Position numbers and translations under genes: made by a program. Shown in pieces: positions 35,091 to 61,832 of a stretch of DNA of 64,000 nucleotides; within the stretch, counting starts at the first letter, position 1, and every line of letters starts with the position of its first letter. This DNA is from Balanoglossus misakiensis. Taxonomy: Eukaryota > Animalia > Hemichordata. The notes below the pieces were generated by a model. That model worked only from the letters and a program-made list of their open reading frames with translations, made no database searches and was not told the DNA's origin. The DNA lies in the NCBI GenBank assembly GCA_040954595.2, contig CM082586.2:2485124-2549123 (forward strand). Reading direction: 5' to 3'.

Positions 35091-38000
35091 ATGGCGTCGG
35101 TTTCGTACCATATCTCCAATCTTTTGGAGAAGGTGGGTACTTTTCTCACGATGTTATGTGCGCAGCCATTTTGATTTTCAGGGCTCAGGGAGGCATTTGG
35201 CATGTTACTGATGGAGGGACAGTTTTAGAGCGAACATTGAATGAAAATCTTGGTATGTTTGGAGATCTACAGAAGTTCACAATGCAATTAATTAGTTTGA
35301 TCCTTATAATTGTACCCATTGATGTATTTTGTTCAGTTTCACATATATTTTATTCACCAAAATAAAAGTCCACTTGTGATTCTAATAGCCCTTCCTATAA
35401 AAAATAAACAGTAATCCCTATAATGCGTTTACTTGTATGTTTGTTGTGATAGAGAGGTGTGATGGAAGCTAAGCTGCTTTGGTGTTTTGGAAGATTAATT
35501 ACTGTAAACATTGCATGTTGTTAAAAGTTATAATTTATAATATATGGTGACAACATGCATCTGCTATTGTAACCAGGAAGTCCAACACTTTGCTTTGTCT
35601 CTGATACATACATTGACCTTGCAAACAAAATAATCTGTTCTTGGTGGTTGTGTTGGTGTGTCTTTGCAGATGACATCCAGTGATAAGGATTTTCGATTCA
35701 TGGCCACAAATGATTTGATGTCAGAGCTGCAGAAAGATTCAATAAAGCTTGATGATGACAGTGAGAGAAAGGTATGTATACAGATGAGTGGACTGTTATA
35801 TGTTAATGAGGTGTTAACTTTGTATTTGCATAGTCAATTACTTTTGCTAATTAGCTGTGCAGAAACTATGGGTAGGACTTGCAGGCTCCTTTTCAGAGGT
35901 TGTCAGTTTGCTAACTTTTTCAAATTAATACATTTTCGTTTCTGTCAGTTTAACATATATAACTGCCACTTGGAAAATAAATATACCCACAGTTGCTGAT
36001 TAATTTGACAACTTTTGTCCCGTCAAGGTCGTCAAAATGTTATTGAAACTGCTTGAAGACAAAAATGGAGAGGTGCAAAACTTAGCTGTAAAATGGTAAA
36101 TTTATTTTGCTTTTTCTTGTTTTGATTGAGTTACTTTGTTGGTTAAAATCCAGTGTGTGATCCAGCATGCCAAAATAAGGAAGATTAACTGATCCTCTGT
36201 GACATCATAGATTCTGTAAATTTGCCTACAGCCTTGGTCCACTGGTAAGCAAAGTCAAAGAATACCAGGTAGAAACCATTGTGGATACTCTGTGTAGCAA
36301 CATGCTGTCAGATAAAGAACAACTGAGGGACATATCAAGCATAGGTAAGTTATAATTGCTGTGACTCCCGGGTCAGTTACATACATAGACATTTACCCAC
36401 CAAACACTTGCCATAACCCCCATATATGATCATGTCATCATTTGGTGTCTATTATTTGTAGGACTGAAGACAGTTATCAATGAGCTGCCTCCAGCGTCCT
36501 CCCCATTGGCTGCCAATATTTGTAAGAGAATTACTGGAAGGCTGACCAGTGCCATTGCAAAGGTGAGAATAGAAACATATACTGGTATACTGTTTATAAA
36601 GTATTTATAAACTTGATATGTATTATTAAAGATATGTTTATTTCATAAACTACCAGTGTTCTTGATGGTATTTTATTATTTTCTCCGTTAACAGCAGGAG
36701 GATGTATCGGTACAGTTAGAGGCACTAGACATTCTAGGAGATTTGTTGAGCAGATTTGGAGGTAAGAAAGTTTGTCATATAACAGAAAAAGATTACATAA
36801 TGATATTAATGATTTAAATGATTAAGCATGAAAAAGAAACCATCTTCTTTTGCTCCTTGTAGGATTATTGCTGACCTTCCATCCGTCAATCCAGGCCAGC
36901 TTGCTTCCTCAGTTGACAAGTCCGCGTCTTGCAGTCAGGAAGAGATCCATCATTGCCATCGGTAAGTTCACACATATATTGGCAACTAATAGTTGCTGGA
37001 CTATATTTTTGTATGTTGTACCAATTTCAAATATTATGCCTCATCAACAATTACTAATTCTTTGCATTTCTTTTTTCAGGACATCTTGTTGTTAGTTGTA
37101 ACAATGCACTATTTGTGGAACTCATGGATAGTTTACTGTCAGAACTTGGTAAAAATGCCAGTGTGTCAACTACCAGGACGTACATACAATGTATTGGTGC
37201 TATTAGGTAAGACTGGTATACTGTTAAAAAAGAGGTTTGTCAAGATGGAGTTGCTTAAAATAATCCGAGCATTCATATCGAGAAATGATGCGCCCACATA
37301 ACCTGATACTAGTGGTTTGTAAAGATGTTGATTTGCTAGAATTACTGCTCTGACTGAACCTTTCATTGATGTTTTCATCGTTAGTCGTCAGGCCGGTCAT
37401 CGTATTGGTGAACACCTGCAGAGAATCATACCACTCGTCATTAAATTCTGCAAAGAGGAAGATGATGATGAACTGAGAGAGTATTGTATACAGGTAATTA
37501 CAGTTCCAAGTAGTGGTGTGGTATATCTGTACTGTACACTTCAATCTTCTGAGTACTGGCAAAACTGTGAAGTTGCAGTCAAGTGTGATGGCAACCTGAC
37601 CATTGTCAAAATAGATTGTTTTCTTTATTATTTTGAAATGCGATGCCATTCCATGAGTTCTCCTAATAGAATATTTCACTCCTCCAGGCTTTTGAGTCTT
37701 TTGTAAGACGCTGTCCCAAGGAGGTAGCACCACACGTTCCTACAGTAAGTATGTTTTGTCTGTTGTACAAAAGTTCTTCCATTCTGTGACGATGGAGAAA
37801 AGAAACACTCAATATTTCAGCTGTTCGTGTCAAACTTTTTTGCATCTTGAATGATATTCTAGCATGCTCATTTTCCTCTTCCTTTTATCAGATTATTGGG
37901 TTGTGTCTAGAGTACATCTGTTATGATCCCAATTACAACTATGAAAGTGATGAGGATGAGGATGCCATGGACGCAGAGGATGAAGATGAAGAAGCGTAAG

Positions 38001-41000
38001 TTACCATGGCAACATATTAGTACATCTTTGAGACTTCCCTGTGTAGATTTTGATTATACCTATTATGATTGAAAAGGCCAGGAATGGGAGTATGAAATTT
38101 TACTTTTGTGTGTTGCAGGGAGAGTGATGATGAGTACAGTGATGATGACGACATGAGTTGGAAAGTCAGACGTGCTTCAGCTAAGTGCTTGGATGCCATC
38201 TTTGCCTGCCGTACGGAGATGATGGCCGATTTCTACAAGACTGTGTCTCCAGCCTTGATTTCAAGGTTCAAAGGTCAGTGGGTCAATCAGTGTGTGTGGG
38301 GTCTTCATGACTTGTGTCTGCAAGAGTGACTGCAATACTAGATTTTCAATTCAGCACTCAGAGGGTTAAACGTATGCAGTACTTGTTCAGTGTCAGTCCT
38401 TTCACTTCAAGCTGCAATCTGAATTCCCTGATCTGTCTTCTTTCACAGAGCGTGAGGAGAATGTGAAATCCGATATTTTCCATGGTTACATAACACTGCT
38501 GAAGCAAACCAAACCAATGCAGAGTGGATTGGTTGACCCAGATGCTATGGAACAGGAAGACACGTAAGTAGCAGCTGTAGAAAATTTTTGTTTTGGGTGG
38601 CAAAATAAAAGTATAGCTAGTTACAAGTAGCATTTGAGCACATTATATTTATGCAAGTATAGGTACATACTTCTGTCGCTTTAGATATACAAGTACTGTA
38701 TAATCCCAAAGGCTTCATGATTTTCCTTCTGTTCCTGCTTGCAGGCCTGTTGTGATGCTACGTAGCCAAGTCTCCAGCATCGTCAAAGCCCTACACAAAC
38801 AACTGAAAGAGAAGAGTATCAAGACAAGGCAGGGATGTTTTGCTTTGCTGACCGAGTTAGTCAATGTCATCCCAGGTGTACTATCAGAACACATCGGTGT
38901 CTTGGTACCAGGCATACAGTTCTCATTAGGGTGAGTACGAGTTGTAACCTAGGAGAGGTCTTTCTGATATCACAGAGGGATGTACCTGAATTAATTGTGT
39001 TGTTGTTATTATTGTTGTTTACAGGGATAAGAACAGCAGCTCCAACATGAAGATTGACACGCTAGCTTTCCTACACACTGTCATGTCAAACCACCCTCCC
39101 CATGTGTTCCATCCGCACATAAGCCAGCTTGTACCGGTAAGTACTAATACAGAATGTGTTCAGAATATTCAGTGCTTCCACAGTTAGTACAGCATTCATA
39201 TGAAATTTGGAACAATTCATATCCTGTTATTTTCTTTATCACTAGCCCATTGTACACTCTGTGGGTGATCCATTTTACAAGATAACCTCGGAAGCACTGC
39301 TTGTCACACAAACCATGGTGAAGGTCATCAGGCCACTAAGTAAGTACCAACAAGATCCAATGTCTTGTTTAGATTAATTTCATTTAAATGTACCCTTGAA
39401 GTGTTTCACTGACAAATATTAACTGTCTAGCTGGAGACAATTGTGTAATATTATCAATGATTGGTTTTATTTCTGATAGATGTGCAAAGTAAATTTGATT
39501 TTACTCCGTACGTGCTGGATCTGTACGGCTGCACCTTTACCAGACTGAAGGCTGCGGACATCGATCAAGAAGTGAAGGAGAGGGCTATCTCTTGCATGTA
39601 AGTGTCATCATGGTTTTACGACCCAGTAGGAATTCTGTCAAAAGGCCACTGAATTTGTGGTATTGTCATCATTTAGACAGCCTAATGAGACACAGTTTCA
39701 TCACGTCTGATCGGGTGTTATATGTACATTTATTTCAGGGGTCAGATAATTTGCAACCTTGGTGATCAACTCAAGAATGAACTGCGAACCTGCTTGCCGA
39801 TATTTCTCGACCGGTTGAAGAATGAAATCACTAGGTTGACAACCGTGAAGGCCTTGACCTTGATAGCTGGTTCACCATTGATGATTGACCTTCGGCCAAT
39901 CTTGGTATGTAGTTGAATTGTGAAGCTGACAATTCATCCTTTCTGTGTGCTCAGGACAGAATATCGATGTTTTGAAAACATATTGGATTTCGGAAAATGT
40001 AAATTCTTTATAATGATTCCTATATTTCTAAATTCTATTATTTGCAGGGAGAAGGTGTACCTATTCTCGCATCTTTCCTCCGTAAGAATCATCGTGCTTT
40101 GAAATTGAGTACTCTACACTGCCTAGATGTACTCATGAAGAATTACGGTAAAAATTAGTTGTTCTCCATCGACATTTTCATTTGCTTTATACGAATATAC
40201 ATGTACAAGCATAAGCCACTGTTAAAAGCATCTTGAGCAATTTGTCTGCCTTATGATTTTGTTTCAGGTCCTGCACTAACCACCAGCATGATTGACGGAA
40301 TATTAGCTGAATGTCCACCTCTCATCAATGAGAGTGATCTACATGTCTCCCAGGTAATCAGTCTGTCAAGGACAATTTAGGATATAATTCAGATACATGT
40401 ATTGTCAGAGGAGTATTTATATACTATGTAGTATGGCCCTCCTTACAAGACAGTGTGTTTTGAAGACTTCTGTAAAGAAAAACTTTCTCAATTATGCTCA
40501 CTGTAGACAAACTTGACTTGTGTAATAATGCTCTCTGTTTGTGTTTCAGCTGACAATGCATCTGTTGACATCAATATCTAAGGTACACAGTAGTTGTATG
40601 GCTCGAATTGACCGGACCATACTACCTGAGGTCTTTGTCTTGGTTAGGTCGCCTCTGCTGCAAGGTAAGTATTTATGAGTTCTTGGATGGTCAAACTTCA
40701 AAATTCATGATCTGTAGAAACATCACCGATTTTGTACAACAAATGAATAGTGGCTTTAATGGATAATTTTCTGTTCTCATGACAGGCAGTGCACTGAATG
40801 CAATGTTGGAGTTTTTCCAGGCCCTTGTAGCCACAGGCTCACCTAAGATGGGTTTCAGAGAGTTGCTACAGGTAAGGAATACACTGGATGGTGTTGTGGG
40901 CTGCTTCAGATTGTGTTACAGTTAGCCTCTGAGAAATCTCTGTAGTATGAAGGAATGCTTTTGTGATGCAGTATTGAATAAAATCATTTAGCTGCCGTGT

Positions 41001-44000
41001 TGCTAAAACGTTGAATTGATTCTGTTTTCTCTCTCCAGATGTTGATAAGTCCTATTTACAGTCCAACACCAGCAACACAGCCAATGAATTCACCATTTGC
41101 TGTTCATAAACAGGTAAGGCATCTGGCTGATATTTGGCTGATCGTTAGACCTTTATTGTGTTTGGTGTTTTACATGCTGGTCCCGTTTTTCTGAATATTT
41201 CATATTGATGTCCATTCCCTTGACAGGCTTTCCACTCTATTGCCAAGTGCGTGGCCGTTCTGACAATGACCTGTTCTGGCGAGGGTTCTAATGTGGTGGT
41301 TCAGTTCGTCAGTGATGTCAAGGTGAGTCGAAAACATGCCAGTAGATTGAGAAGAGTAGTTTGGTTTGATACAAGTCTCTTCTGTACAAAGATAAAAGTC
41401 TGTGTCGTTTTGTGTACCATGTGGTTTGGTAGATACTTATACCCAAACTGTTATTTGGTATTTCATTTTCAGAATCCTAAATCAACGGACTCCATTCGTC
41501 TCTTTGCATTACTGGCACTTGGAGAAATCGGCAAGCATGTGTAAGTACATTATTCACTTGTTGACAAAACTTTTTATCTCATTTTACTTTTCTTTGATGC
41601 CTGTCTGACTGTTTATTTTCACTACGTGTCATTGCAGAGATCTGGGGAGTCAGAGTGACCTACAAGCTGTCATTATCAATGCTTTCTCGTCTCCCAATGA
41701 AGAAGTCAAATCTGCAGCATCCTATGCATTAGGTAAGTTGGTAATTTGTCTCAGAAAAATTTCAGTCATTATCTCTTTGGAGTTTATAACACCTAAAAAT
41801 ACATAACTGAAACCCAGCCAAAGTTGGCCAGGTTCTTTGCATGCAAGTTGCTGCAGCTTGTATCATGATCTGTGTTTTTTCTCCCTCCCTCAACAGGCAA
41901 CATCAGTGTCGGAAACCTGTCTCTGTATTTACCCTTTGTGTTACGTGAAATAGAAACTCAGCCCAAGAGACAGTACCTGCTGTTACATTCTCTCAAAGAG
42001 GTGAGCTTTCAGATAACAAGGTCTTACTCTGAAACTGAAACTGAAGCAGTGTAACTAGTGTGTTCAATATTTTTCAATGAAACTGGAGGATTATGGTTAG
42101 TCTTTTTCATACCATATTTAAAAGCCTTTAAAAACAACTCTACCTTGTTGCTTTCAGATCATTGCATGTGAATCTGTCAGTGCATCAGCTGTTGAACACA
42201 TAAAACCATTTGTTGGAAATATCTGGTAAGTCAACCATTTGTCTTGTCAACCTGATTTTGTTATCAAGTCAGGGATTTGTTATGAAAGGAGTTGTATTTC
42301 AGTGTCATATACAAAACCCTTTTGCTGTGATTTTCCCACAGGGAATTACTCTTCAATCACTGTCAATGTCCAGAGGAAGGCACCAGGAATGTTGTCGCCG
42401 AATGTCTGGGAAAATTGACCCTCATTGACCCAGCCATGCTACTACCAAAGCTTAAGGTGAATATATTGAAATTTTCTTGATTAAAACAGTTGTGTGTGTA
42501 CATCATGCTTACATAGAGCATTGCGAGCACAAAAGGGTATACTACAAAAAAGCATATAGAGTATATTGTAAGGTCTCTAAGTGGTTAGTTGCTCTGATTG
42601 AATTCAGTAGTTGCTAATAAGGTGATCCTGCTGTGTTAAATGTCTATTTCTAGGGTAACTTGAAGTCATCTTCACCGTTCACAAGGAGTACAGTCGTAAC
42701 TGCAGTCAAGTTTACCATCTCTGATCATGTGAGTATCCAGCCCATCAATCAATCCTGACATATCTTTTGTATTATGGAACACACTCTTCAGAAAATCAAC
42801 CCGGGCCTGATTATGTGAAAGTATGACTGCCATATTTCCTTCCTTCCAGCCTCAGCCTGTTGACTCGCTTCTTAGGAATTGCATCGGTGATTTTCTGAGC
42901 ACCATGGAAGATCCGGATTTGAATGTCAGGCGGGTGGCCTTAGTCACGTTCAATTCAGCTGCTCACAATAAACCGTCACTCATTAGGGACTTGCTTGATG
43001 ATATTCTACCACACCTCTACAATGAAACCAAAGTCAGGGTGAGTTTTGTTACGTTTCTCCAACATCATCATGTTGCTTCATCAGCAGTGTTCTTCTACAC
43101 ATCATCTTTGAAAACAGACATCTCAGTGTAACAGCATAGAGACATACTTCTGAATGATGGTCTGACAGAAATATATAATGTTGCCTGTACTTTGTGTTTT
43201 TCTTGTCATCAGAGAGATCTGATTCGTGAAGTTGAAATGGGTCCGTTCAAACACACAGTGGATGACGGACTTGATATTAGGAAGGTGAGTTGTTCTAAAA
43301 CCAAGTCAGTCATTAAAAATTCGGAATCAATGACATAATGTTATATAGTTTGCATACTTGGTAGGAGTTGATCTGGAGAGACGACTATTCTAATTTTCAT
43401 GTCACTCTTGTCTTGCAGGCTGCTTTCGAATGCATGTACACATTGTTGGACGCCTGCTTGGACAGGCTAGATATTTTTGAATTCTTGAACCATGTAGAAG
43501 ACGGTCTCAAAGACCATTATGACATCAAGGTAAGTGTTAAGAAATCCCTGCTTCACTGCTGTAGTGGATCATGTATATTGCGAAGATCCCAAGATGTAAC
43601 TTTAGTGTCCACGTTCAGTAGGGCTGCCACACTGAATACCAATAGTCATGAAATAGATCATTGAGCTTACAACCCTCCAGAGCAGACTCTTTATTGGATT
43701 AAATGCCGCGAGTGTGCAGTGTTGGCTTTTAAGAAATTCTAAAGTTACAGGTATATGAATCCTCTGTTTCTGATTTCTTTTCTAGATGCTTACTTATCTA
43801 ATGCTGGCAAGGTTGTCATATCTCTGTCCTAGTGCTATTCTGCAACGTGAGTATATACATGTGTGTCGCACTCAAGGGTTTACTGAAGTCTTTGTGGTCA
43901 ACAGTATCAATGATCCTTGGGAGTGTGAGATTCTATTAGTACAAGCTATGCAAGGGAAATTGCATAATTATGTAATTGGGCTGCATGTATCATTTTGATT

Positions 44001-44490
44001 GACAGGTCTTGACAGGTTGATTGAACCTCTGAGGGCCACCTGCACCACCAAGGTCAAGGCCAACTCTGTGAAACAGGAGTTTGAGAAGCAGGATGAGTTG
44101 AAGAGATCTGCCATGCGAGCTGTAGCTGCTCTGATGGCTATCCCAGACAGTGGTGAGTTGAGAGTGACTGTAGTTGGGGTCTCAGAGTTCATTATATTGA
44201 TCTTGATATATGATGTAGGAGTATCACTGGTGAACCTGAGTTCAGAGTTCATAGCGTTGAATGTCAAGTTGAATTTAGTTCAAGCTATATAGTTCACAGC
44301 TTTTGTGAATTTTTGCTGAACTTCCATTCACGTTGTCTTGTTCATCTTTTTTCCTCCAGATAAAAATCCACTGATGAATGAATTTGTCTCCCAAATCCGG
44401 TCGAGTCCTGAAATGTCTACCATGTTTGATAGTATTCAGAAAGACGCAGCGGCCAGTGTTAGCACCGACTCAATCATGGACACCAGTTAA
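35091..44490 (+). CDS. CAND1: Cullin-associated NEDD8-dissociated protein 1 (HEAT repeat), ~35 short exons
   Basis: [154 protein letters not shown]; stop TAA at 44488-44490. Confidence 0.98.
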
Positions 44491-45584: not shown

Positions 45585-46441
45585 CTATATTTCATACTCG
45601 GTCTTATTTAGTTCTATCCAGTTTAGAAACTTTGTAGTGAAGTCTTTATGTGCTACTAAATCTAACAAGGTGTCGCTATCTGCTTCTGCATCGTGGGAAG
45701 ACGCGTCATATACATACTCCAAATGATTATCACAGAGATCGGCGAGAGTGTGGCTCTCATCTGGTAAAGTTTTCTGGAAAAACAACAGACTATCAGCGGC
45801 GTATAAACTACAGTCGCTCAAACCCGGAATTTCTATTTTATCCACCTCTCTCTTCAGTATTTTGAAATCGAAATTGTCGCCGGCATGAGCGACCAAGCAG
45901 ATTGGCTGCACCTGCCGCAAGAGAAAGCATTTTATGGACATGATCAAATTCTGGTCCGTCTCCTGTTTGCCGTACTTTTCCAGTAGCTCCTTGCTCAGAC
46001 CCGTCTTTTCCTCCGTCCCGGAAGCAACTTGTTTTCTTGGGGCGACGCACATGACAAGCTTGTCTTGAACACGCGGGGTGACACCTTCAGCCGACGCTTT
46101 GGTAAAAGCCTTCCTGGGCACGGCGATCATGGCTATTTCGGTCATGTCTGGTATTTTCTTCCTGTTCGGACAGGGAAGCGCGGTGGCCTCTACATCGAGG
46201 AACACAAACGTTTGCGTAACTGTGCTTGTTTTATCTTTCTCGGCTGTGCTCGTTTCTTCTTGTTTCTTTTCTTCAGTTTTGACCTTCTATAGGGTTTAAG
46301 CAGAAAACATTGCCTATTCTATGCAGTTAGGTGTCAAACTGAAAAAAAAAAACATCTTTCGTTTTCAACTTTTTGCGATTTCCGTCACGTTGTTTCACCA
46401 TAATCATCGTTACTTACTTGTTGGCGATTTCTACGGCCCAT
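45585..46441 (-). CDS. TREX1/TREX2-like DEDDh 3'-5' DNA exonuclease with intact active site; exons 46441-46418 and 46286-45585, ~241 aa
   Basis: ExoI TFVFLDVEATAL, TREX-typical PRVQDKLVMCVAP, ExoII PICLVAHAGDNFDFKILKRE, ExoIII SHDAEADSDTL. First exon MGRRNRQQ ends at a CAA|GTAAGT donor. No C-terminal TM tail. Confidence 0.9.
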
Positions 46442-48016: not shown

Positions 48017-49201
48017 CTACAACCCAAAGACCTTTTGTGCCAAGCCTGGATCTTCGCGCTGCAAATGGCTTCGAATCTCCACCATTTTGAGTCCTTGTTC
48101 TATGACACTGCGTGGGTTTCCTTTCGGAATGAAGTAGCCAGCGGTGTGCATGACAACGAGGTTTCCTCTGTCGTCGAATCCAGGACTGCCGGATGATCCT
48201 TGAAGGAAGGAAGACTGATAGACCGTTCCATCGGGTCGCGTTAGCGCAACCCTCAGCGTTTCGTTCTCCCAATTTGTATCAATGGTGTTTCCGTAGAAAG
48301 AGTAGTTGGCCGACATTGCCAGTTGAACCGAGGGGTCTTCGATAGGATTCTGACTGATCGCGCATCGAGGATCGATGCGCTTTGGTTTGCCCCCAGGATG
48401 GCCTATGAGCGCTATGTATGCTCCTTCGTCTGAGGGTGGCGGGCCGATCAGTGTATCCAAGCCAGGAGGAAGGAGAGGAGGAAGGTGGTTCTTCTCCAAT
48501 TCACAAACGGCATAATCCGGATTGTCATTCATGCATCTGATATGTGTCACCCTTACACAATGGTGATTTTCTCCCGCCGTTTCTTCGTAGTTGAAACACA
48601 CGATGAGATGGCCTACCAATGCTTGTCTTATTTTTTCCATGTCCGTGACGCCATTTCCACATATCAGTTGCAAGACGTGAAAATTAGTGATGAAGAAATT
48701 GTCGCCTACTCTGAAACCACTTCCCAGCGCACTATCAACGCCAGCTCTTTTTATGAGGCCCACAGAATTACTGTATTCTATCAATCGTTTCATGTGCGAA
48801 ATACTCAAGGTGGTGTCGTTAATATAGGCTAGCTTTTGCTGCCACATTAACTGTTTTTCATCTGTTACTTTTCCTATCCCCGGCCGCATCTTCTGCAGCT
48901 GACGACCGGCTGGAGTTCCCTCTGCACTATCTTCAGGGAAGTACTTTTTGAATCTCGGATCACTTAGCAGATCCATCTTGGGAAGTTTCGTCAGTATCTC
49001 TTTCATAGCGCTCCAGTATCCACCGGGAAAGGGATGTGATATAATCAACTTTACTAAATCATCAATACTTTCCGCCTTTTCGAGTCGACCTGCGGCAACT
49101 TTAAATCCGCTCAAGTATGTCTTAACTCTCCTTATATCTGTCGTTTCCAATTCATCAAATAATTGAATCAAATCTTCCTTGGAACTCGAATCATCTGCCA
49201 T
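48017..49201 (-). CDS. Death-fold (DED/PYD-like) domain fused to a FAM111-like trypsin-family serine protease, single coding exon, ~394 aa
   Basis: The N-terminal ~85 aa show the death-fold helical pattern (LIQLFDELETTDIRRVKTYL...RLEKAESIDDLVKLII...YWSAMKEILTKLPKMDLL). The C-terminal part has the triad TNFHVL / DYAVCEL / GSSGSP and FAM111 hallmarks SNSVG, FNYEE, LIGHPGGKPKRID, FDDRGNLVVMHTAGY, SVIEQG. Confidence 0.85.
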   Translation of the reverse strand: MADDSSSKEDLIQLFDELETTDIRRVKTYLSGFKVAAGRLEKAESIDDLVKLIISHPFPGGYWSAMKEILTKLPKMDLLSDPRFKKYFPEDSAEGTPAGRQLQKMRPGIGKVTDEKQLMWQQKLAYINDTTLSISHMKRLIEYSNSVGLIKRAGVDSALGSGFRVGDNFFITNFHVLQLICGNGVTDMEKIRQALVGHLIVCFNYEETAGENHHCVRVTHIRCMNDNPDYAVCELEKNHLPPLLPPGLDTLIGPPPSDEGAYIALIGHPGGKPKRIDPRCAISQNPIEDPSVQLAMSANYSFYGNTIDTNWENETLRVALTRPDGTVYQSSFLQGSSGSPGFDDRGNLVVMHTAGYFIPKGNPRSVIEQGLKMVEIRSHLQREDPGLAQKVFGL

Positions 49202-50935
49202 TATATGTGTTGAACTGTGAAATAATGTGAAATAAAGCTTGCTGAAATTATATGTCAATCTAAGGGCGTCAAGTCCTGGGGCACTCTTCCCGGTCCTTGT
49301 GTAGGGTAGGGGTCAGAATTCTACATTTTGGCCAAATACTGATGTCTAAAATCTACATTTTCTAAAATGATGTGTCAAAAGTCTACGTCTACTCAACTAA
49401 ATATGGCCGATGTGCATAACGCCACCATACGACTGACATGGGCGCAAAATACGTCCCAAGACAAAATATACCGACCATTGATCATTTTACTGTGTGTTTA
49501 TAGAATGACAGCTCAATGGTAAATCTAACGACCACTTAAGTTCTTATACTAATAGTGATAGAAAGAGGTCAATGCGTGAACTCGTGGAACCGGGTCTATG
49601 GTAAAACATTCTAGCAAAATCACTTTGATGCTATGCCCCGTGTGTGGGAGCTCTGTCTGGTCATGTCAGCGTTTACAGTTACACTGTGGTCCGTGGTGGC
49701 AGGCGTAATATATTATCCTACTTATGAGGAGGGCGGACACTTCTTTAATAAAGACTACGACCCGCCATATTGTAATCACCCTATTACCATGCAGTTTTTT
49801 TTCAGCGAAACTAAAGTGAAAGTAAAAGTGATGTGTGTTTATTCCCATTGTAGATCGACTGAAAAGCATCTCTTCTTTGTACAGGCCATTACCATCAAAA
49901 CAGTGGAAGAGAAGAAATGATAGACCGTCAAATCTTACGCAGGAGTGATCAACCAAGCCTAGCTAAGTCACGAAAACACCTACCTTGTCGAATCGACCTT
50001 TCATATCGCTACATGTGCACAGCGAATTCCGAACAACAACACCTGCGTTGGCACCAACCTCATTGATTAGTTTTCACACACAATGTCATACAGCCGCATA
50101 CACATATCGCATACAACAGGTACATTGGCATTTCACGAAATAGACTAAGTTGAGGTGTTTAATTGCCAAGTCTTGAAAGCTATCATATACAAAACATGAT
50201 CTAACTCCAAACAAGGTAAAACTATAAGTAACACGTGTACATTTGATAACGCTATGTCCCAGTTTAATACTTACATTCGACAAAAGACTGTATTCCGTGC
50301 AATGGTGGTGTCTCTATGATGTCTCGATCAGGGACCGACGCGGTGCCTTCTCAGTGTGTTCCAGAAAAAGAGAACTACTCGACAGGAGTAAAGGTAATAT
50401 AAAGCTTAAGCCTAAGGACATCATGTCTATAAATAGACGCATTACGTACACTGTTCACGTGACGCTTCAGTAGCTATTGGGACACCAACACCAGGTTTTA
50501 TTTCAGTCAATCAATCAATCGCCCAGCCTATCTCGCTATTTGTCGAGTAGACGTGACATTACAGGTTATCATGGCTTCAAGGCATGTATATGTTTAGACC
50601 AATACAAATCATATGATTCATACGTTTTTTGTATGACACACCTTTTCCAATGAAACTAAAGTGAAAATGAAATTGCCATTAAGCTTTATTTATAAGCGTA
50701 TATACACACAAAAACACATATGTAGTACAGTCATTGTAGGGAAATTGCACGAGATCTGGAGAGTGACATAAATTGCAATTTATGTAATTGTTTTATCGGG
50801 CAACATGAAGGAAGTGATCACATCTAATTTTTATGTACGCGTCAAGATAAGCTTAGGCATTTTTTTTCAAATGCTGACTGCTAATACACTGTAGTATCAA
50901 CACACATGTTACATTCACACCACTCCGCGGCAGTT

Positions 50936-52449
50936 TTACGTGTTTTTGGAGGCGCTGAACATTTGTGCGTGGCTATCGGCCCATGCAAGAAACTCTTTCT
51001 TCCAAGGGTGGTGAAATGCCAGTCTGAACAGTATTTTAGCATCTTTTGCAGCGCACCAACTTTGCTGAGTCCCGAGATATTTCCTGGCCAGTGCGTCCAA
51101 TGAGCGTGGCTTTTCTGGCTCCGTTTCCCTGAAGAATTCCAAGGAATCAACCGACCTGACTTTGGGCAGTTTTTCTGCAACTTTGTAGAATTCATTGCGC
51201 AGGATGGGGAATTGAAAAGCGTTGCCGTTGTGAGCCACGAGGCAAACCGGCGTGGGGAGTCTCTTCAGAAATGACGTGATTACTGTGTATGTCTCTTTGT
51301 CCATGGGTTTGAAGGCTGAGACGTGATGTGCGTCGATCTGGTGGTGTTCCCTGGCGGTGGGTTCGATCGGCTGTTTCGGGGACATGCAGACAACGAGACT
51401 GTTTGTGATGCGTGGCTTTCGGCCGACAGGTGGTGGCCTACTTTGCATTTCTTCTCTGGTCACCGCGAGAAGAGCCAGTTCGATGACGTCAGGCTTCACA
51501 CTGGGGTCGTCGTCACTGATCAAACCCGTGGTTTCCATGCAGAGAAACACGAATGTTTTGTGTCGTGGCATGACGAGCTAAGAGAAAGAAACCATAAGCA
51601 ATGTGAATAAGACGTTCTCTGTACACATTGATGATTTTCACAAGAGGAAATTAAAAGACATAACTCCCCTTTTATATCAGTTGCTCTTTTACCACAAACT
51701 TCAAACCGTTTTACCACAGTACATAGATTTCCTTACCGATTCTTCAATACCCGTTGGGGTTCCTACAGTCCCGGATGTTGAATCTGTAAAATATTGTCTC
51801 CCTATGTCTCCGAAACCTCGTCGGCTTCTGCGTAAAGCTGCAGTCCATGCACAGGGCAGGTTCAACCTTCCATTAAAATGAAACCGTGAATTTAAAAAGA
51901 CATAAATAGCATCCAGATGATGATTATGATGGATCGATGATTTGCTCGGGAAAATCAGTCTTATTCAAGTAATTCTTCGGACACAACAAATATATTTAGC
52001 GACAATTTTTTTTGGTCACAGAAGTAACAGGCGAATAAATGCAGTTCGTGCAATCAGTTCGTCTGTCGAAATGAAATCCACATAATTGATCGATTTGATA
52101 GTACGTACTTCGACCTCAGTAACTAAGACCACAAAACTCCCATTTAGTTTTCATACTGACACCATGCTTAGGTAATTTGTGTGTGTTGTATAATCATTGA
52201 CACACAGTGTTGGCGTTTTGCCAATTTCGCGCACTTTGAAGTATATGATCGTTGCAAATTTCTGTGCGTGTCCTGACAAGATTTGAAGACTTTTGTCGCC
52301 AGGTCATACTCGACAAAAAATCTTAATTCTGTGGGACGCTCGAAGCGCGATTACGCAGATTGTCACTTAGAAAACTCAAGTATTTAACATAGCCATTACC
52401 TTGGTAACATGGGAACCAAATTTCGTCGGACAATGCTAGTCGTTGCCAT
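50936..52449 (-). CDS. Catalytically degenerate TREX-like protein with putative mitochondrial presequence; exons 52449-52400, 51866-51737, 51577-50936, ~273 aa
   Basis: TREX fold is kept (TFVFLCMETTGL, PRITNSLVVCMSP, PVCLVAHNGNAFQFPILRNEF, VDSLEFFR) but ExoI D>C, ExoII D>Q, and the ExoIII His is lost (SWCAAKDA). Two upstream exons splice in frame from an aaccATGg start. AATAAA on minus at ~50690. Confidence 0.82.
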
Positions 52450-54058
52450 GGTTATATTTTGATACCATAAGGTCAGAGTGCAAGACCAGAAGTCTTTTTC
52501 AAAACCTGGGCAAAATAAACAAGAAAACACCAGAAAAGTTCTGATCTGTGTTGTTGCTTCATCGATACTGCAAAAATACAAATGGTTGACTCAAAAATGT
52601 CGATTCCACGCAGGGCTTACCTATACCTGGTTATATAATTCGCAGACCGGGAATCGGTAATTTCCAATGACGACACCAGAATCGCAAAGGTTCTTGGGAG
52701 TTTCGATCAAACAAATACATGATTGAATAATCAGTATTGTGGCAGGTTATCGTTGTAAATGTTGGTGTCAGCGGTCACTCGCCGTTACCTTGGAAACCGC
52801 ACGCCCACAGTCGCACCTCTCGATCGACCTGTTTCGTTGCTAATAAAGGTCACGTGGTTCATAAATTTTGAAGCTGTCTATGGACAATTGCAAGCTTTCT
52901 GCTTGTTTGCGGTATATACTTTCAGTTTGTGAAACTGATCTCTACTGTTGCTTATGATCGGCTTGTTCTGTGCAGGGCAAACACAGGTCACATCACAAGC
53001 AGTCACTGTATTAAATGACTGTCGTCACAAACAGACGCATAAGTGGGCGAGCTAAAATTTCAGTTTTTCGGGGTTTGTCCTATGAGGGCGCCCAAAACCG
53101 ATACAGTTTTACATATTGCGTAGTCCTAAAATCGGCAAGTCACAAAGTGCGGCCAAGTGAATTAACGATCAAAAATCGTGATACCACATGAAAAGAGGTA
53201 GATAGCGGATCCCTACTCGCACTTACGATGAGCAGAGTAAGTGTGGGAATGTAATAGCAAACTCTCCGAAACCCACGTGCTTGTACGCCTACAATACGCA
53301 TGCGTGTATCTCTGCACCAACAAACACGCCCCGTTCACTATCAGCGGCATGGGTACGACGCTACTGGCAGGGAAATGGTGATTGACATACACATTCCAAG
53401 GAGAATTACTTCATGGGTAGGTGGAAAAATAAACGTGGGGTGGGGCTTTTGGAAAATGCGGCATATTTGAAATTAGTTGTCCTCCCAAAATGAAAAATTA
53501 TTAACTGTGTTCAATGACCTAGCGTTTGGTTCGTCCATGCCGTTCTTTCTCTTAGTTTGTCGCTTCTTGAAAATCTCACTCACTAAAAAGTACAGGATAG
53601 CATTTGCCATTTTATTTATATTTACAGGATACATTGAAACTGCGTTTGAGAACAATTCTGTATTAATTACAGTATAATAGAGTAGACTACAGTTGGTAAA
53701 TAATGAACATGGTGTTGGGCAGTATCCCAATATACGATGATGTGTAAAGTTGTAATATCTGCTGGATGTTGTATGTTGTGTAGTTTGTATCGCAAAGTCA
53801 TTGAGTTCAAAACATGTATAAATTTAAAATTATAATTGGTAAAACATGTATTCGTACCATCATTGTCATCGAGTTTGGAATAGATATTGTCAGCGCTGGA
53901 TTCAAATTCAAGCGGTCTTCTCTTACGTAATAGGAATCGGGTTCATCAGCGCTGAAGTGGATTCAGATTCCCGTCGATTCGTCAGCCGAAGATTCATGAC
54001 CCAGAATCTCATCTGTGCTCATAGCCACGGAATCTGGACAGCAGGATTGCAGTCTCAA

Positions 54059-56318
54059 TTAAAGAATCTTCATGCAGTGTTTCCCATCGGGTCTTAACCT
54101 GTAGCCGACAAGGCAGGAACAGTTGAAAAATCCCTGATACGAGGTGCAAATCTGTTCACAGCCGCCGTTTCTGTCAGCGCAGTGGTTTACATCTACGTGA
54201 GCTGATGGTCAAGAAGTGAAAAAAACATGATGTAAAATTGTGCATCTGGGAATGTTGATGAAATGCAACAGACGACAAAAAGTTACAAGTGAATGAGGGG
54301 TAAGTAAGCTTTCTAAGTAATCCAAAAGCATATAAAGCTATGAAAATGTGGGTATTTAATGCTTATGCTCGTTCAGGGGCCCTAGAGTCAAGATTGCTAT
54401 TTTGCATAAACATCTGGATGGCCGTAAGGTAACAGAAACAGATATAGACTCCAGCCCATACGCCCCACGGTGTGGGAAATGAAAGCTTCTTATTTGCACA
54501 GAAGCACCGAAAACGCGTGTTATTATGATTCATCGTAGAATTGGACAGACTTAATTAAGCATAACACAAAATCATAAAATAATTTATTGATAAAACGTAC
54601 CTGCGATTGATGCTTGCACAATAGCAGCAGTTGTTGCTATTGCTGTTAATACCATCAAGATGAGAACGATGGAGCAAATTATTTTTCCGTATCCCTTCTG
54701 TCGTCTTCTCTGTCAAAGAGCGGGAAGGGAAACATTTGGAATCATAGAACAGTAAACTTCTTCGGCTGAACATATTTTTCAATGAATCATGACAGTACAA
54801 AGTATCAATCAAAATAAACTATAATTGTTGTACAGGATAAAGTTGACTAAATATTTTTTTGGAAACAAATGGAGCAAAACAATCGACTGAGATGTGTAAT
54901 TTTCGGGAAATGTTTCCGCTTACCTTTTCCATGGCTGTACACAGTAGAAAAAACTAATTCCAAATGACCGACCGATTTTAAAAATAAATTGAGCAAATGT
55001 CACGTGATGAGGTCAAGATGGCCAAAGGTTAGCGGTCCGTCAAGGGTGAGGCTATGACCCATAACATGACTGGTATACTCGTGTGTATGCACATCGATAT
55101 ACATGTTAAAGTTAACATTCTTTGACGTTGTAAATTTATAACAGACAGAAGAGCTCGGATGCAGTTTCTGAAACATTTTATTGATTTGTTTGGCACTGAA
55201 TCCTCGGTGTAGTTTTCGTCAGTGCATAATAAGGCAAGGTGTCCGTCTGGTGACCGAAACAAAACCTATTGTTGTCAGAGTCAAAGGTGCAGATGGTGTT
55301 CGCTTTCTCATTAGTTTCCAAAGCCGTATGGAGGATCGTTCTATGAATCTCATTTCTGGCGTCTATTGTCATGCAAATCCATCGAAAGAAAACAACTCGA
55401 AGAGTACGGTTACGGTTCGTGTAAAGTATTCCACAATGACTGTGGGCCCTGGTTGATAGTTCGAGTGTCAAATCAGCAAGTTAACGACAGAACACTCGCG
55501 GCCATGACGGTTAACATATTTTATTCAAAATATACGATATTCAAAAGTGAACTTAATAACTGTGTGGTATACAGATTGGATTTTGTTGTATAATTAGGTT
55601 AATCTACATATGGAAATTACGGTCATGTGGTAGAACGTTTGGTAGAGAGATCCATTCTTGGAATACTGTTTCGAGGTGATGTTTCGAAATTTCAAAACCA
55701 CTTCACTATTGCATTCTATTGAGACAGATGTGAGAGAATTATTGTCCAGTAATTTTTTTGCAACTTTTCTCGTCGCCAGCTAGCTCGAATCCGTCACGAC
55801 AGGAGCAGTTGTAAAAATTAACATAACTGTGACATAGTTGCTGACAGCCACCATTTCTGTCGACGCAATGGTCAATATCTGCGTATGTAAAATATATTAG
55901 CATATTTAGACAGAAATGTGTGTTGCGCCCTCACCTGCAGAAGCATTGGGAGGGGAGCCTCACTTTGGAAAGGAAGCCATCTTTGTTTTCGAGTTATGTC
56001 TGGTGAAGGTGCAGGACTCCACGTGTGGTGTGTTCAATTAAAGATGTTGTTCAACACAACGTGTCAACGTCGTGTGGTCGTTTTAATATTGTATCTACAT
56101 GAAGTCATTTCTAAACCTTTGTAAACTTAAAAAAAAAACGTTTGCGTTACAGACAGCGAGGATATTAAGTGTTGTGATCGTGCAAATTAAAATCTTACCG
56201 CTGGGCAATGCCGCAATCCTTTCAACGATGACCACGGCGGTCACGAGTGCCCCCAAAATCATCACCATGGCAATAATGGAAAGGCAAATTCTCAGGAGCA
56301 GCTTTTTATGTCGTTTCT
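54059..56318 (-). pseudogene. TM + EGF gene remnant or short gene, probable paralog of the upstream type II EGF gene
   Basis: TM exon KRHKKLLLRICLSIIAMVMILGALVTAVVIVERIAALPS|GTAAG (~56318-56199) and terminal EGF exon VNHCADRNGGCEQICTSYQGFFNCSCLVGYRLRPDGKHCMKIL* (~54192-54059). The intervening and upstream exon candidates carry in-frame stops, so no clean full model could be built. Confidence 0.45.
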
Positions 56319-58028
56319 GCAAGTGATTTGAATGAGGTAAAATATTATGATGACGTCAGTAGTCCACTGACACCTGAAAATTGACAGAAGATAGGAAATA
56401 CCATGCAGCTTTAATAGCTCCGCCATCTTGGAGTCCTATGGAAAGAAATCGCCTGATTTCTCTTGCAATATTCATACCTGCTCACTGACATTATCCGATA
56501 TTAATGGCCTATGAGACGTTTGCTTGTCGGTCATGGCGACGATGGGCACTGTAAGAAAACAGAGTTATGTCAAAATGCAAATGCTTTTGTGGTATCGAGT
56601 TCAGGCTTTGTCGTCTTTATATTGTTTTCAGGTACAAACCTCGAAAAGTCCTACACGACTTAAATATTTTACTGTTAAGCGAAAATGTTTGTTGTCGAGG
56701 TATTATCATTTTAAAAATAGACACCATCAGCTTTGTGCTGGCACTTATGCGATATTTTTATGCTTTTGAGGTTATAGTAAAATTCGATTTAGGGTCAAAG
56801 GTTGAGTGGTGTCCACACAGTATAGGAAACTTACCTTAAAATACAATGTCAGCGAGCCTGAAGTTCTATCAGCACTCTCTTCATTTTAGACGTGTATGAA
56901 AAAGACCGAGAAATGACTATTAATCAAAGCAAAGCCAACCGTATGGGAGTAATAAAAACAAGAAGAGGTGTCATATAACGCCTTATGGTTGGATGTTGGT
57001 TTAAAAGGCAAATAATCATCGTCCTGTCTGCATGACTAAGCTGGCTCATTCTGTATATATCCCCCCAGCCAACAGGAGGGGTCCCCCTACCCGAAATAAA
57101 AGACCTTGTTGGTAGGTGAGATGACAAATAGTAGGCCGTCGTGTACAAAAAGCATATCATTATTCGTTTCGCCGTTACATAAAAAGAAAATTACATTTAA
57201 AATCATAATGGGTGTGCAAACACTCGGTGGAAGCATATCCAACAGGTTATTTATATGCGGCAATGTTGAGAGTGATGGTAGAGCTGTCACTGGAGCGGAG
57301 AACAAAACACCTGTGGCTTCGACGTACCCAATTGGAAATAGGGAAAGACAACCCCAGGTGTCAGGTTATTCATGAGAATCAAATTACCGTTGTTTAGTTC
57401 CGCAACACTTACCGGCATTTAGGCTGTTGTTCAGGTGCTTGTAAACTCCAGACCCACCCTCGGTACTGCGTATACGCCGCCGCGATTATTTGTGTTCACG
57501 ACTGAAATAGAACGGAGTGTGAAAAAGCATGTGACACGAAAATTTATAACCCACGCAACAGAGTTATCCATTTTATGTGCATACGTCATTCGCCACAGAC
57601 AGATACATCCTGTTCACTACAATAAATACACCATCTGAACGACAACCCAAAATACGTTTGTCATCACATCACAGATGAAATTACACCTTTAATCCAGTTC
57701 CTTTAAATATGCAATACATGACTTTGTACAGATGTTGTTGTAATATATCAAACTATTTAGTCACGATTATCATACAATTTTCATGATTGTTGAAATACAA
57801 TCATGGAAACGGTGCCAAACCTTTTTGGAAGAAAATACCTAATTTCCGCAAATCTCTGTAGTAATAGATATGTTATCTACATTTAATGACTTCTCTGTCT
57901 GGAAGGTCAGTTTTTTCTAGTTAGCGCACAAAACTCTGCTATAAAGTTTCAGTAAGAAGAATTTCAGTTGTATTTCATTTTGTGAATTCAATGTTAACAT
58001 TGTGTGCTCTGATGACTCAGACGTGCGT

Positions 58029-61000
58029 TCAGGGACAAAACGATTCCGCTGTGATTCCTCTTGGGTTCGTGATACTGATGTTGAACCTTGTTCCCAGTCC
58101 GCTGTTGTCGTTTCTTGCCAATGCCATAACGTCACCACTGTATTTGAAACAGAAGGAATATTAATACTCTTGCACACAAAGAACATAAATACATTCTTCC
58201 GTCCATTCATCAACCATAAGGCAATACAGAATCACATAATGATGCTTACTACTCATTACTAATCCAGTAGATGCTATCTTGTGTGAATGCCATATCAAAT
58301 GGCCTTTTTCCATCCGCTGTTATTATTTGGCGCTGGGACGTTGTCAGATCCATACATTCAATCGTGGATACTGCAAGAAAATGACACACAGGTATCAAAC
58401 AGCGCAGAGATTTAAAAACTGGCTTCGTAAATCAACTGTAAATCAAACAAGTATGTACAGTGAGAAACAGCTTACTGTCGTCACACCAGCATAGACGGTC
58501 AGCGTACGGATCGTACTTCAGTCCAGTGAGAGCATCAAGTCCCTCGACCAGTATTGTGGAGTTCTCTCCATCTAGAGTTGCCTGCTCAATGCCATACTCT
58601 GTTGTCGCCAGGTCAAGTCTGTGTTGATAACCCCAGTACAAATCTCTGTTGGGGAGACGTGGCATTGAGACACGTTTAGTTGTAGAATCCACGTTGCGGT
58701 CGCATTTGAAATGACTCTTTGGTAAGGCCTGAGCAATATTTTAGACGATTGCATTTATAATTACTGGCCATAAATTTCATTCGCCAATTAACATGCGCTC
58801 TAACCACTGAAAGCTTATTCGACCCAATTCCAAACGGAAATAGACGGAACTGCATGTGAATACATGTTAGCGATTGGAACTCATTAGATATGCGTCCTCG
58901 TCACATGTACTATTAAAAGCCAACGTTATTCCAGTTGACTATTTCGGGAAGTACTCTGATAATAACGTAATTTGCAAACAGATATTTTATCAATGTGGCA
59001 TAAGTGACCAATTGATAGGTGTTTAGTCCTTTCAGCAACTACGACTGAAGCAAGGGTCCTGGTTTTTAAATGCACCACGTGTGCAATCTGTGTGACAAAA
59101 TAGAGGACGTTCATCTCACCCTGCCATTGGGTTCACCGCTACGGCCAGCGGGTCCCTCCGCCCGGTGTCAGCTATGACGTTCGTGTTCACCTCCGACCCA
59201 TCCAACGAAGCGGACGCGATGTGCTCGTGCTCGTTGTCAGCCCAGTAGATTCTGCCATTGAACGAGTCAACTGCCACGTCTGTAGGCATTTCTATACCTG
59301 GAAGAAAGCAATGTGTTGACGAGGGCGTTGTTTAATACATGTACCCGAACTCTCAAAAGTACGTTAAAAATTGTTATAGAACGTCATCCTTAAGCTTTAT
59401 ATTACCAGCTGTGACTACGTTTTGAACTTCTTCCAATCCGCCATCTTGCAGTCTGCCCCGAAGGATAGAAGATTGCGTCACACTTGACCAAAAGATATAC
59501 CTATAGGAGCATTCATAGTCAATACCATAGGCTCCCTGGCTTTCTGATAATAACACGGGATCACCGCCAGCTACGACGCTGTAAATTCCACTGGCTGAGT
59601 CGGTGTAGTACAGTACGGCTGGAAGATAATAAGAACGAATTCGATGCATTTCAAGCAAGGGACAAAATATCACATTGACTTGTTAAATTCACCCGATGCA
59701 GGTTACTAGACACTTGTGCCACTTAATCAATGATATACATGTGACTCCTTTTGAAATGTATTGCACCAACAAATGGTGCAGTGCCATAAGATAAGTCCCA
59801 CTGGCCGTGTAACTGTTAACCCTACCGTCACAAGATCTCCCGTCTGCGTTCAGAACGTAGCCTGTTCCACAATGGCAAACGAATGACCCCTCTGTATTTT
59901 CACAAGTCTGCTCACATCCTCCATTATCGACATTACATTCATTAATATCTGTTGAAACAAAGAAAAAAAAACATTTTAAACAATTCAGTGAGCTAGTATT
60001 TATATCAGCACGGGATCCGGCCTGTGAACAGTTAAGTCAATTCTAAACATCTTAAATATGTCAGCGTCTCCTTTGAACTATCGGATAGGGCTTTTAATGG
60101 GCAAACATACCATCACATGTTACATTATCGTCACTTAGCTGAAACCCTTCATTACAATCACATCTAAAAGTTGACACCAGACCAATGCAAATCTGCTCAC
60201 AGTCATTTACTTCGGTAGCACACACGTCTATTTCTAGAAATTAAAACATGAATATTGTGTGAATCGTTATGTTAAATCCCCTGTATTCTTTGGATAACCT
60301 TTCTTTGGATTTTCACTGCATACAAGAATTATATTTATCAATCGCCAATAATTATACAATTTATGATAATTCATTACTATCACAATTGTCATCTTATAGA
60401 TCCTCTGGGATCAATGATATACTCTTAGCGGGTAGGGTGTTCAACAGACCTACTGGAAAACATACCATTGCATGTTTTACCATCATCATTGAGCAGATAA
60501 CCTTCGTGACAGGAGCAGGTAAAGAATGGCACCTTATTAACGCAAATCTGTTGACAGTCATTATCGCCGCTTTCGCATTCGTTAATGTCTGAAAATTGGA
60601 ATGGATCATTCGAGATTAGTACTGAGAGTACCGAATACACAAAATATTCGTCCTAGGCTGGGAGTTGATGTCTGCGCTTTACATCTTCTATTTCTTGGAG
60701 ACATGCTGTTGACTCTTTGGTGTCAGGCCCTGTCTTGTTGAGCCACGACATTTTCCTTGTCTTCTACGAGAATGCCCGCTGTGAAGCACAGTAATTATGA
60801 GAACAAACATAGTACCACTAAGTAGTTCAAACTTACCACCACACGATCTGTTGTTGGCGCCCAGTGCGTAACCATCCAGACACGAACAGACGACACCGCT
60901 AACGTTGCTAAACGAGCAGTTGTGCTGACAGCCGCCATTTTCCACCGAGCACAGGCCAACTTCATCAAATAGTTCTGAAAGCACAGTCAGCTCGTAGATT

Positions 61001-61832
61001 AACTTTGGAATCGATGGCATACGAAAGAAACGTCATCTATTGTCATACCCCTGCAACCGGCTGTTTGGGCACTATATTTAATAGTCATATGTCAACACAT
61101 TAACAGACGACTTATAATCCAATTTTGCCACATCGGCCTCCATAATATATTTGCGTCCGGGGCGGTTGATAGTCAGATTACAATATCACTTTTCATTGAC
61201 ATATGGTTAGACACCACAGTTAATTAAAGTAAAGATATATATGCTATGAAATGGCAGTGCTCAGGTTCTGAGAAACATCAACCAACCGGCCAGTGTTTCT
61301 GTTTATATGCCTGTACTTTCTTTACCTGAAACATTCGTCTCATTTGCGTATCATTGCATCACATTCATGCATCTCAGATTTCTTTGTTTGCATGATTGAT
61401 ATCATGCAGAACACTTACCTTGCGATCCCAATCTTCCCGGAATAAACAACACCATCACAATGACAACGGCCACGGCCACCAATACTATAAGCGTCCAGCA
61501 CACGATTCTCCCTACAGACTGTCGTTTGCCTTGCTAAAATCGGAAGGGGGTTCGATTTAAAGTAGATGGGGGAAAGGAGTCTCAGAAGAAGCATGTGACA
61601 TGGACAGGTCGTACACAAGTCAACCTGAATCTCGGTAGAAAGATAGCATGGCGACTATCCCACAAATCGTAGTTTAATGTCTCATGTTCGAGCCAAGCCA
61701 AACCATACCAAATCAACCAAAACAAATAAAAAACGAACATTTTAAGCGAACAAACAATCGGATAAAATAACTTACTTCAAGTCCCCTGTCTTGATCGAGT
61801 AGTCCATTCTGTTCAGCGTTCGGGTTCGCCAT
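58029..61832 (-). CDS. Type II membrane protein with 4 EGF/cbEGF repeats and a C-terminal YWTD (LDLR class B / nidogen G3-like) beta-propeller, ~11 exons
   Basis: [19 protein letters not shown]|[33 protein letters not shown] (N-terminal anchor); EGF exons [58 protein letters not shown]; propeller motifs YIFWSS, RIYWAD, DLYWG, RLCWCD, SIYWIS; ends [11 protein letters not shown]. Confidence 0.85.

Follow-up and report, generated by a model that had tools for sequence, protein, structure and literature searches.

Human FAM111A is an antiviral restriction factor (PMC13245274). Its cleavage of substrates requires a dimer formed through helix alpha-1, and a K348-E415 bridge orders the oxyanion hole, while autocleavage, at F334, is independent of dimerisation (PMC10920703). 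The human protein dimerises by itself with a Kd of ~4.8 nM and no adaptor, favours Phe at P1 and has a recessed active site that suits flexible substrates (PMC10920703). A review of FAM111 evolution left open whether the family began in immunity or in replication, proposed that its UBLs arose after marine invertebrates, and reported invertebrate FAM111s without UBLs; the sections consulted mention no death fold (PMC9798293).

Caspases are clustered by PYD and tandem-DED filaments (PMC11874512). In conflict systems, a shared small adaptor brings effectors to sensors by homotypic binding, and death-plus-trypsin fusions are already known, having been tabulated in bacteria and in amphioxus, where a Death+Trypsin architecture is listed in supplement 4 (PMC8195603). 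A 2024 survey reported that PYD is absent outside craniates and that hemichordates have homologues of GSDME/PJVK (PMC11508797).

We analysed a window of 64,000 nucleotides from the hemichordate Balanoglossus misakiensis (GCA_040954595.2, contig CM082586.2, positions 2,485,124 to 2,549,123). One gene in this window joins a PYD-type death fold to a FAM111 protease, an architecture that is real, conserved and apparently undescribed. No PYD-FAM111 or other death-fold FAM111 protein occurred in the literature titles and abstracts found, a coverage that lies outside the subscription journals. There were 0 occurrences of FAM111 in the searched text and supplements of PMC8195603, and neither 'trypsin' nor 'FAM111' was present in the consulted main text of the death-fold atlas. 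One mention of FAM111, in PMC12700824, was set aside as a typographical error for FAM118.

Gene model and FAM111-type protease

The preliminary description had reported an open reading frame from 49201 to 48017 on the minus strand. The frame was found there, with 394 codons, a stop and zero internal stops; the random occurrence of a 394-codon open frame at 40% GC is ~7e-12. Because the death fold and the protease lie in one frame, wrong exon joining cannot explain the fusion. The features of the gene are given below, where P0002 and P0027 are the two closest relatives, both from Ptychodera flava.

48017..49201, minus strand: coding sequence, a single coding exon of 394 aa with a PYD-type death fold, a linker and a FAM111 serine protease
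49215..49240, minus strand: pyrimidine-rich tract and CAG splice acceptor, predicted from sequence, 13 nt 5' of the ATG
48938..49201, minus strand: death fold, residues 1 to ~88, of the PYD/DED branch with PYD apparently nearest, by profiles and predicted structure
48866..48937, minus strand: variable linker, residues 89-112, with weak conservation and gaps relative to P0002 and P0027
48818..48865, minus strand: residues 113-128, putative amphipathic helix with W120, from the alignment pattern
48764..48817, minus strand: helix alpha-1, residues 129-146, equivalent by alignment to the FAM111A dimer helix
48020..48763, minus strand: FAM111-type Trypsin_2 protease core, residues 147-394, by PDB, Pfam and homologue searches and by the tree
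48677..48679, minus strand: catalytic His175, invariant in 25/25 alignment rows
48581..48589, minus strand: Y205-E206-E207, equivalent by alignment to Y414-E415-E416 of the FAM111A dimer-sensor loop L4
48515..48517, minus strand: catalytic Asp229, kept in 24/25 alignment rows
48191..48193, minus strand: catalytic Ser337, in GSSGSP, kept in 25/25 alignment rows

The splice acceptor would permit an upstream coding exon, but this was rejected and the ATG was kept at 49201, because both P0002 and P0027 begin at the equivalent Met. One candidate splice donor, near 49984, lies between the acceptor and the upstream gene. The gene, in a source genome that is animal and intron-rich, probably begins with a non-coding exon, and both domains are then encoded in a single coding exon. 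Neither a signal peptide nor a membrane segment was predicted in the 394-aa protein (19-residue hydropathy maximum 0.87). The window protein itself was absent from the protein collection that was searched.

A Trypsin_2/FAM111 match had been expected for the C-terminal part, and both components of it were recovered. Pfam Trypsin_2 scored 41.4 bits, and in the PDB sequence search human FAM111A was the sole match (E 1.6e-20, residues 129-382; next 0.089). The 24 homologues taken from 3,970 candidates all carried PF13365 (24/24), 19/24 carried FAM111_N and 15/24 were named FAM111. On these matches the protease is a member of the FAM111 family. NCBIfam gave no match, and PADLOC gave only weak matches to the retron-XI protease.

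The reported H/D/S triad proved intact, with H175, D229 and S337 aligned to H385, D439 and S541 of FAM111A (residue numbers of the 8s9k chain were counted from the catalytic H385). The FAM111A helix that the preliminary description had given was identical to that in PDB 8s9k and aligned to residues 129-148 without a gap. In alpha-1, M137, K138 and I141 stand for V347, K348 and V351, and K345 is replaced by S135. Across alpha-1 and L4, K348, Y414, E415 and E416 are thus identical, the replacements of V347 by M and of V351 by I are conservative, and K345 is lost; K138 and E206 preserve the K348-E415 pair. By alignment, the dimer helix and dimer sensor of FAM111A appear largely retained. The sensor seems less well preserved in P0002 (R at the K348 position, FE at Y414-E415) and in P0027 (FQD) than in the window protein.

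The window protein is thus like human FAM111A (PDB 8S9K/8S9L; Palani et al. 2024, PMC10920703) in its Trypsin_2 domain, triad, alpha-1 helix and Y-E-E of L4, and also in having no signal peptide and in keeping the S1-lining residues H556 and E573 as H352 and E368. It is unlike FAM111A in having a death fold in place of an N-terminus matching the UBL profile, and in the changes of F538, which also lines S1, to Q334 and of K345 to S135. Given the P1 Phe preference and recessed site of FAM111A, the window protease likely has a similar, non-Asp cleavage specificity. The putative 113-128 helix with W120 is common to all three death-fold-fused proteins (the window protein, P0002 and P0027) and lies at the position of the FAM111A autocleavage site, F334 (PMC10920703).

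The N-terminal death fold

The N-terminus had been described as a DED or PYD. The death fold stood, and PYD appeared to be the nearer of the two. Pfam PYRIN (PF02758) matched at E 0.038 with the whole protein and at E 0.0021, 18.6 bits, with residues 1-91; as this falls short of the gathering cut-off of 22.9 bits, we label the domain 'PYD-type' and not PYD proper. A profile made from two PYD repeats of tuna (fish) gave 22.5 bits for the window domain and a maximum of 5.9 for shuffles (468 scored of 500).

A HMMER search with residues 1-94 against 1.84 billion representatives returned six proteins, namely P0002, P0027, P0028, the tuna protein P0026 with three PYDs, and P0029 and P0030, which were dropped as spurious because they are repetitive and aligned only in part. 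The profile of four invertebrate domains, from which the vertebrate row was left out, matched NLRP10 and NLRP4F best in the PDB (E 0.031-0.041), with NLRP12 and an ASC fusion also among its 14 matches. A word-index search with residues 1-95 scored 0 of 58 candidates.

A single-sequence model of residues 1-94 (pLDDT 67) was poor, gave no death-fold match (Foldseek, VIA) and was superseded by a model built on a 5-row alignment (pLDDT 82). The latter showed six helices and a short seventh, as anticipated for a six-helix death fold, and 49 of its 50 structural neighbours were death folds. PYD proteins took all of the top 8 places (Z 11.8-9.9, the best rmsd being 2.0 over 80 residues), followed by DEDs (Z 9.5-8.2) and then by CARDs and DDs (Z <= 7.8), a preference for PYD that is not independent because the folding alignment included one fish PYD row. 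Since a structural Z below ~13 can mean a generic helical bundle, according to the warning of the comparison tool, the uniform list of death-fold neighbours outweighs the Z value itself. The Foldseek result expected for the N-terminus was obtained in rank, with the NLRP3 PYD first (TM ~0.70), but not in significance (E 0.066), and no Foldseek match of the alignment-based model reached E < 0.001. The ESM Atlas, queried with the N-terminus, returned DED/PYD clusters at 0.78-0.80, under the tool's bar of 0.9, and the viral structure library yielded only weak rows, for vFLIP and poxviral PYDs, with no E < 0.001.

The window domain is like vertebrate pyrin domains (NLRP3, NLRP4F, AIM2, ASC), which are its best structural matches (Z up to 11.8) and share a short helix 3. 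It is unlike them in its short H2-H3 loop, which is long solely in P0027, in falling below the Pfam cut-off when taken alone, and in being carried on a serine protease of an invertebrate. The copy in P0028 leans towards DED. On the predicted structure, we take the N-terminus to be a six-helix death fold, probably closest to PYD.

The P0027 death fold reached 28.7 bits with PYRIN, above the cut-off of 22.9, and has a precomputed PYRIN match. A hemichordate protein over this cut-off, together with the window protein as its relative, suggests that the PYD lineage, or a DED-like precursor, is older than its reported absence outside craniates would imply (PMC11508797).

Relatives and origin of the fusion

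P0002 (P. flava XP_070534084, 'FAM111A-like', 516 aa) was 49% identical over 99% of the query, and P0027 (P. flava XP_070534099, 'FAM111B-like', 388 aa) was 45% identical. Both have the same layout of death fold and protease as the window protein and carry automatic names only. P0027 has a single death fold; P0002 differs from the window protein in having two in tandem, the second copy being identical at 87/94 positions. The identity of the death fold across the three fused proteins was 34-42%. P0028 (P. flava XP_070534594) carries this death fold on the initial third of a GT4-conflict glycosyltransferase; it may be an incomplete model of a longer sensor, and it is a candidate partner type. 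P0002, P0027 and P0028 are each listed on a contig of 40,314,384 bases. A non-functional or chance fusion is scarcely credible, given that the frame is open, the triad intact and the fusion repeated in two annotated genes of P. flava (45-49% identity).

The tree of 25 protease domains (two near-duplicate homologues removed, P0027 and P0031 included; rooted at the midpoint without an outgroup) placed the three fused proteases together with support 99/99, and within this group the two P. flava sequences paired to the exclusion of the window protein. The window protein had no match to a profile of the FAM111 N-terminal (UBL) region made from 17 FAM111_N-bearing N-termini; among the 8 proteins tested with the FAM111_N profile, P0031 of P. 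flava scored 19.6 bits (E 2e-7) and P0003 of amphioxus 10.9 bits. By these comparisons the window protein is a FAM111-family paralogue and not a vertebrate-type FAM111A orthologue. P. flava retains P0031 as a separate FAM111 bearing the N-terminal region, and the simplest reading of the origin of the fusion is that a conventional FAM111 was duplicated and its N-terminus then swapped for the death fold.

The protein could also be a FAM111 paralogue that works in DNA replication or DNA-protein crosslink repair, with an incidental death fold. Such a role is the best-studied function of FAM111A, but the FAM111 N-terminal profile is unmatched here, P. flava has P0031 as a separate FAM111 with that region, and the death fold is kept at 34-42% identity in three proteins, and we regard this explanation as very improbable. 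As a separate observation, the match of P0031 and P0003 to the vertebrate FAM111 N-terminal profile fits badly with the proposal that UBLs arose after marine invertebrates (PMC9798293).

The profile search of longer proteins found the 3 input relatives alone among 7,994 scored. No relatives were found on metagenome contigs (0/177 pattern matches) or on viral contigs (0/135). Similar designs in the ESM Atlas were a Trypsin_2+Death cluster of 90 members (346 aa), mostly cnidarian, and many bacterial EAD-Trypsin_2 clusters, with EAD1-Trypsin_2 clusters reaching a feature score of 0.93-0.94 against P0027. A molluscan protease cluster of 98 members (382 aa) aligned with most of P0027, starting at residue 33. 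The cnidarian and molluscan clusters may be further death-fold protease fusions.

The preliminary description had drawn a parallel with the trypsin-like effectors of bacterial death systems, and this was borne out by the bDLDs fused to trypsin-like peptidases (PMC8195603) and by the EAD1-Trypsin_2 neighbours in the Atlas. The window protein resembles the bDLD/EAD-trypsin systems and the amphioxus TRADDN-Death-Trypsin protein (Kaur et al. 2021, PMC8195603) in combining a small helical adaptor with an intracellular trypsin-like effector, and those systems likewise reuse one adaptor on other proteins of the genome. Unlike in them, the adaptor is PYD-type and not bDLD, EAD or Death, and the protease belongs to the FAM111 family.

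Proposed activation by clustering, and genomic surroundings

We give a probability of roughly one half to the reading that the window protein is an innate-immune effector protease, recruited by a death-fold partner and activated by clustering. The death fold would bind a like fold on a sensor or adaptor oligomer. Clustering would then drive or stabilise the alpha-1 dimer, or lift an N-terminal restraint, so that the oxyanion hole becomes ordered as in FAM111A, and the recessed site would cut flexible linkers in a protein of the host or of a virus, with a large hydrophobic residue, and not Asp, as the probable P1. Recruitment with clustering is the best single reading because FAM111A needs a dimer, PYD and tandem-DED filaments cluster caspases, conflict systems use adaptors, and in P. 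flava the death fold is both reused on a GT4-conflict protein and duplicated in tandem. It is further favoured by a fusion kept in three diverged proteins whose proteases group together, by the retention of most dimer-helix and sensor residues, by the antiviral activity of FAM111A, and by independent Death+Trypsin_2 fusions in the mostly cnidarian Atlas cluster and in amphioxus. The presence of the death fold on the GT4-conflict protein fits the 'EAD principle', the homotypic recruitment of effectors. Against this reading stand the weaker preservation of the sensor in P0002 and P0027 and the lack of a second death-fold gene in the window, whose 1,663 six-frame pieces contained no further copy of either the death fold or the protease.

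The layout is like that of the initiator and inflammatory caspases (caspase-8 with its tandem DED), namely a death-fold prodomain, a linker and a protease of a family that needs dimerisation. Fish PYD caspases carry a death-fold prodomain as well. Unlike caspases, with their Cys/His caspase fold, the window protease has a Ser/His/Asp chymotrypsin-like fold and is not expected to be specific for Asp. Although not an initiator caspase, its catalytic domain being Trypsin_2, the protein may act like one.

The weightiest objection to clustering is that human FAM111A is already dimeric at ~5 nM unaided and is held in check by its N-terminus, so proximity need not be the switch, and the conserved alpha-1 may mean a permanent dimer. 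The protein would then be a constitutive FAM111A-like dimer whose death fold, standing where FAM111A has its PIP box and UBLs, serves as an address label or an autoinhibitory cap, either delivering the dimer to a death-fold complex or virus factory or restraining it until the linker is cut. We consider this main rival tentative and somewhat unlikely. It agrees with the Kd of ~4.8 nM and with the reduction of specific activity by the N-terminal region of FAM111A (PMC10920703), with interface residues M137, K138 and I141 that are hydrophobic or identical, and with the clade-specific helix at the FAM111A autocleavage position. A dimer of this kind could, however, be weakened by the M in place of V347 and the S in place of K345, and the tandem death fold of P0002 recalls the tandem-DED caspases, which are activated via filaments. 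Forced dimerisation read out by autocleavage, as had been proposed for the window protein, would mislead, because the autocleavage of FAM111A is independent of dimerisation (PMC10920703).

A gasdermin had been suggested as the substrate under clustering activation. This suggestion gained no support, as there was no other death-fold copy in the window and no gasdermin-like open reading frame was noticed there, and we hold it to be rather improbable. The GSDME/PJVK homologues reported in hemichordates make a gasdermin test possible, yet they are not evidence for a gasdermin substrate (PMC11508797). More broadly, invertebrate deuterostomes could possess a caspase-independent inflammasome-like pathway, in which a pre-vertebrate pyrin-type fold would connect GT4/NLR-type sensors with a FAM111 protease; the protease would assemble on the filament of the sensor, pair through alpha-1 and cleave an executor of cell death, for example a gasdermin. 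We regard this pathway as doubtful; if true, it would match in animals the death-like-domain/trypsin conflict systems of bacteria and would suggest that FAM111 had its ancestral role in immunity.

In the window protein, a naturally occurring chimera, a serine protease from a dimerisation-dependent family has come under a death fold, and it would allow tests of proximity activation beyond caspases and of FAM111 regulation. The novelty is tempered by the shuffling of death folds onto many effectors in marine invertebrates, by the Death+Trypsin fusions already tabulated, and by the function being one that we infer.

The protease gene is flanked by two TREX1/2-like genes.

45585..46286, minus strand: downstream neighbour, exon of a TREX1/2-like DEDDh exonuclease, E 3e-30 to TREX1, catalytic motifs intact
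50936..51568, minus strand: upstream neighbour, TREX1/2-like protein, E 2e-23 to TREX1

The two paralogues are 31% identical and lie on the same strand as the protease gene, 1.7 kb off on each side. The downstream exon opens at a splice acceptor. At three DEDDh-motif positions where the downstream copy has the first Asp, a later Asp and the His, the upstream paralogue has C, Q and W, and it is probably catalytically dead. We treat both genes as context, with only a putative functional link to the protease gene.

These neighbours would be as compatible with dampening as with an effector function, which counts against the clustering reading. The protein could be a negative regulator whose death fold takes the protease to a signalosome, where components are cut and the signal is ended, while the flanking TREX-like nucleases would clear immunogenic DNA. 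PYD-only and FLIP proteins serve as decoys, and TREX1 has a dampening effect on DNA sensing. The TREX1/2-like genes on the same strand, 1.7 kb away on each side, are consistent with this, but gene adjacency in animals is weak evidence, and the known activities of FAM111A are restrictive and toxic, not dampening (PMC9798293, PMC13245274). We judge this alternative to be quite improbable.

Elsewhere in the window, a 649-codon frame at 30158-32107 on the minus strand (55% GC, GC3 0.70) encodes a PHD finger, and the PDB search gave PHD matches only. By eye, we take this frame to resemble a transposase of the Transib/RAG1/Chapaev type whose acidic catalytic residues are altered and which is perhaps domesticated. 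An acidic, coiled-coil-like frame of 334 codons at 33344-34348 on the minus strand matched no Pfam family and possibly belongs to the same gene or element. Exon-sized frames on the plus strand at 24997-25308 and 35634-44279 presumably resemble V-ATPase subunit H and CAND1. At about 54000-61100 on the minus strand, exons with EGF-like and YWTD-propeller-like sequence, of LRP type, were recognised by eye.
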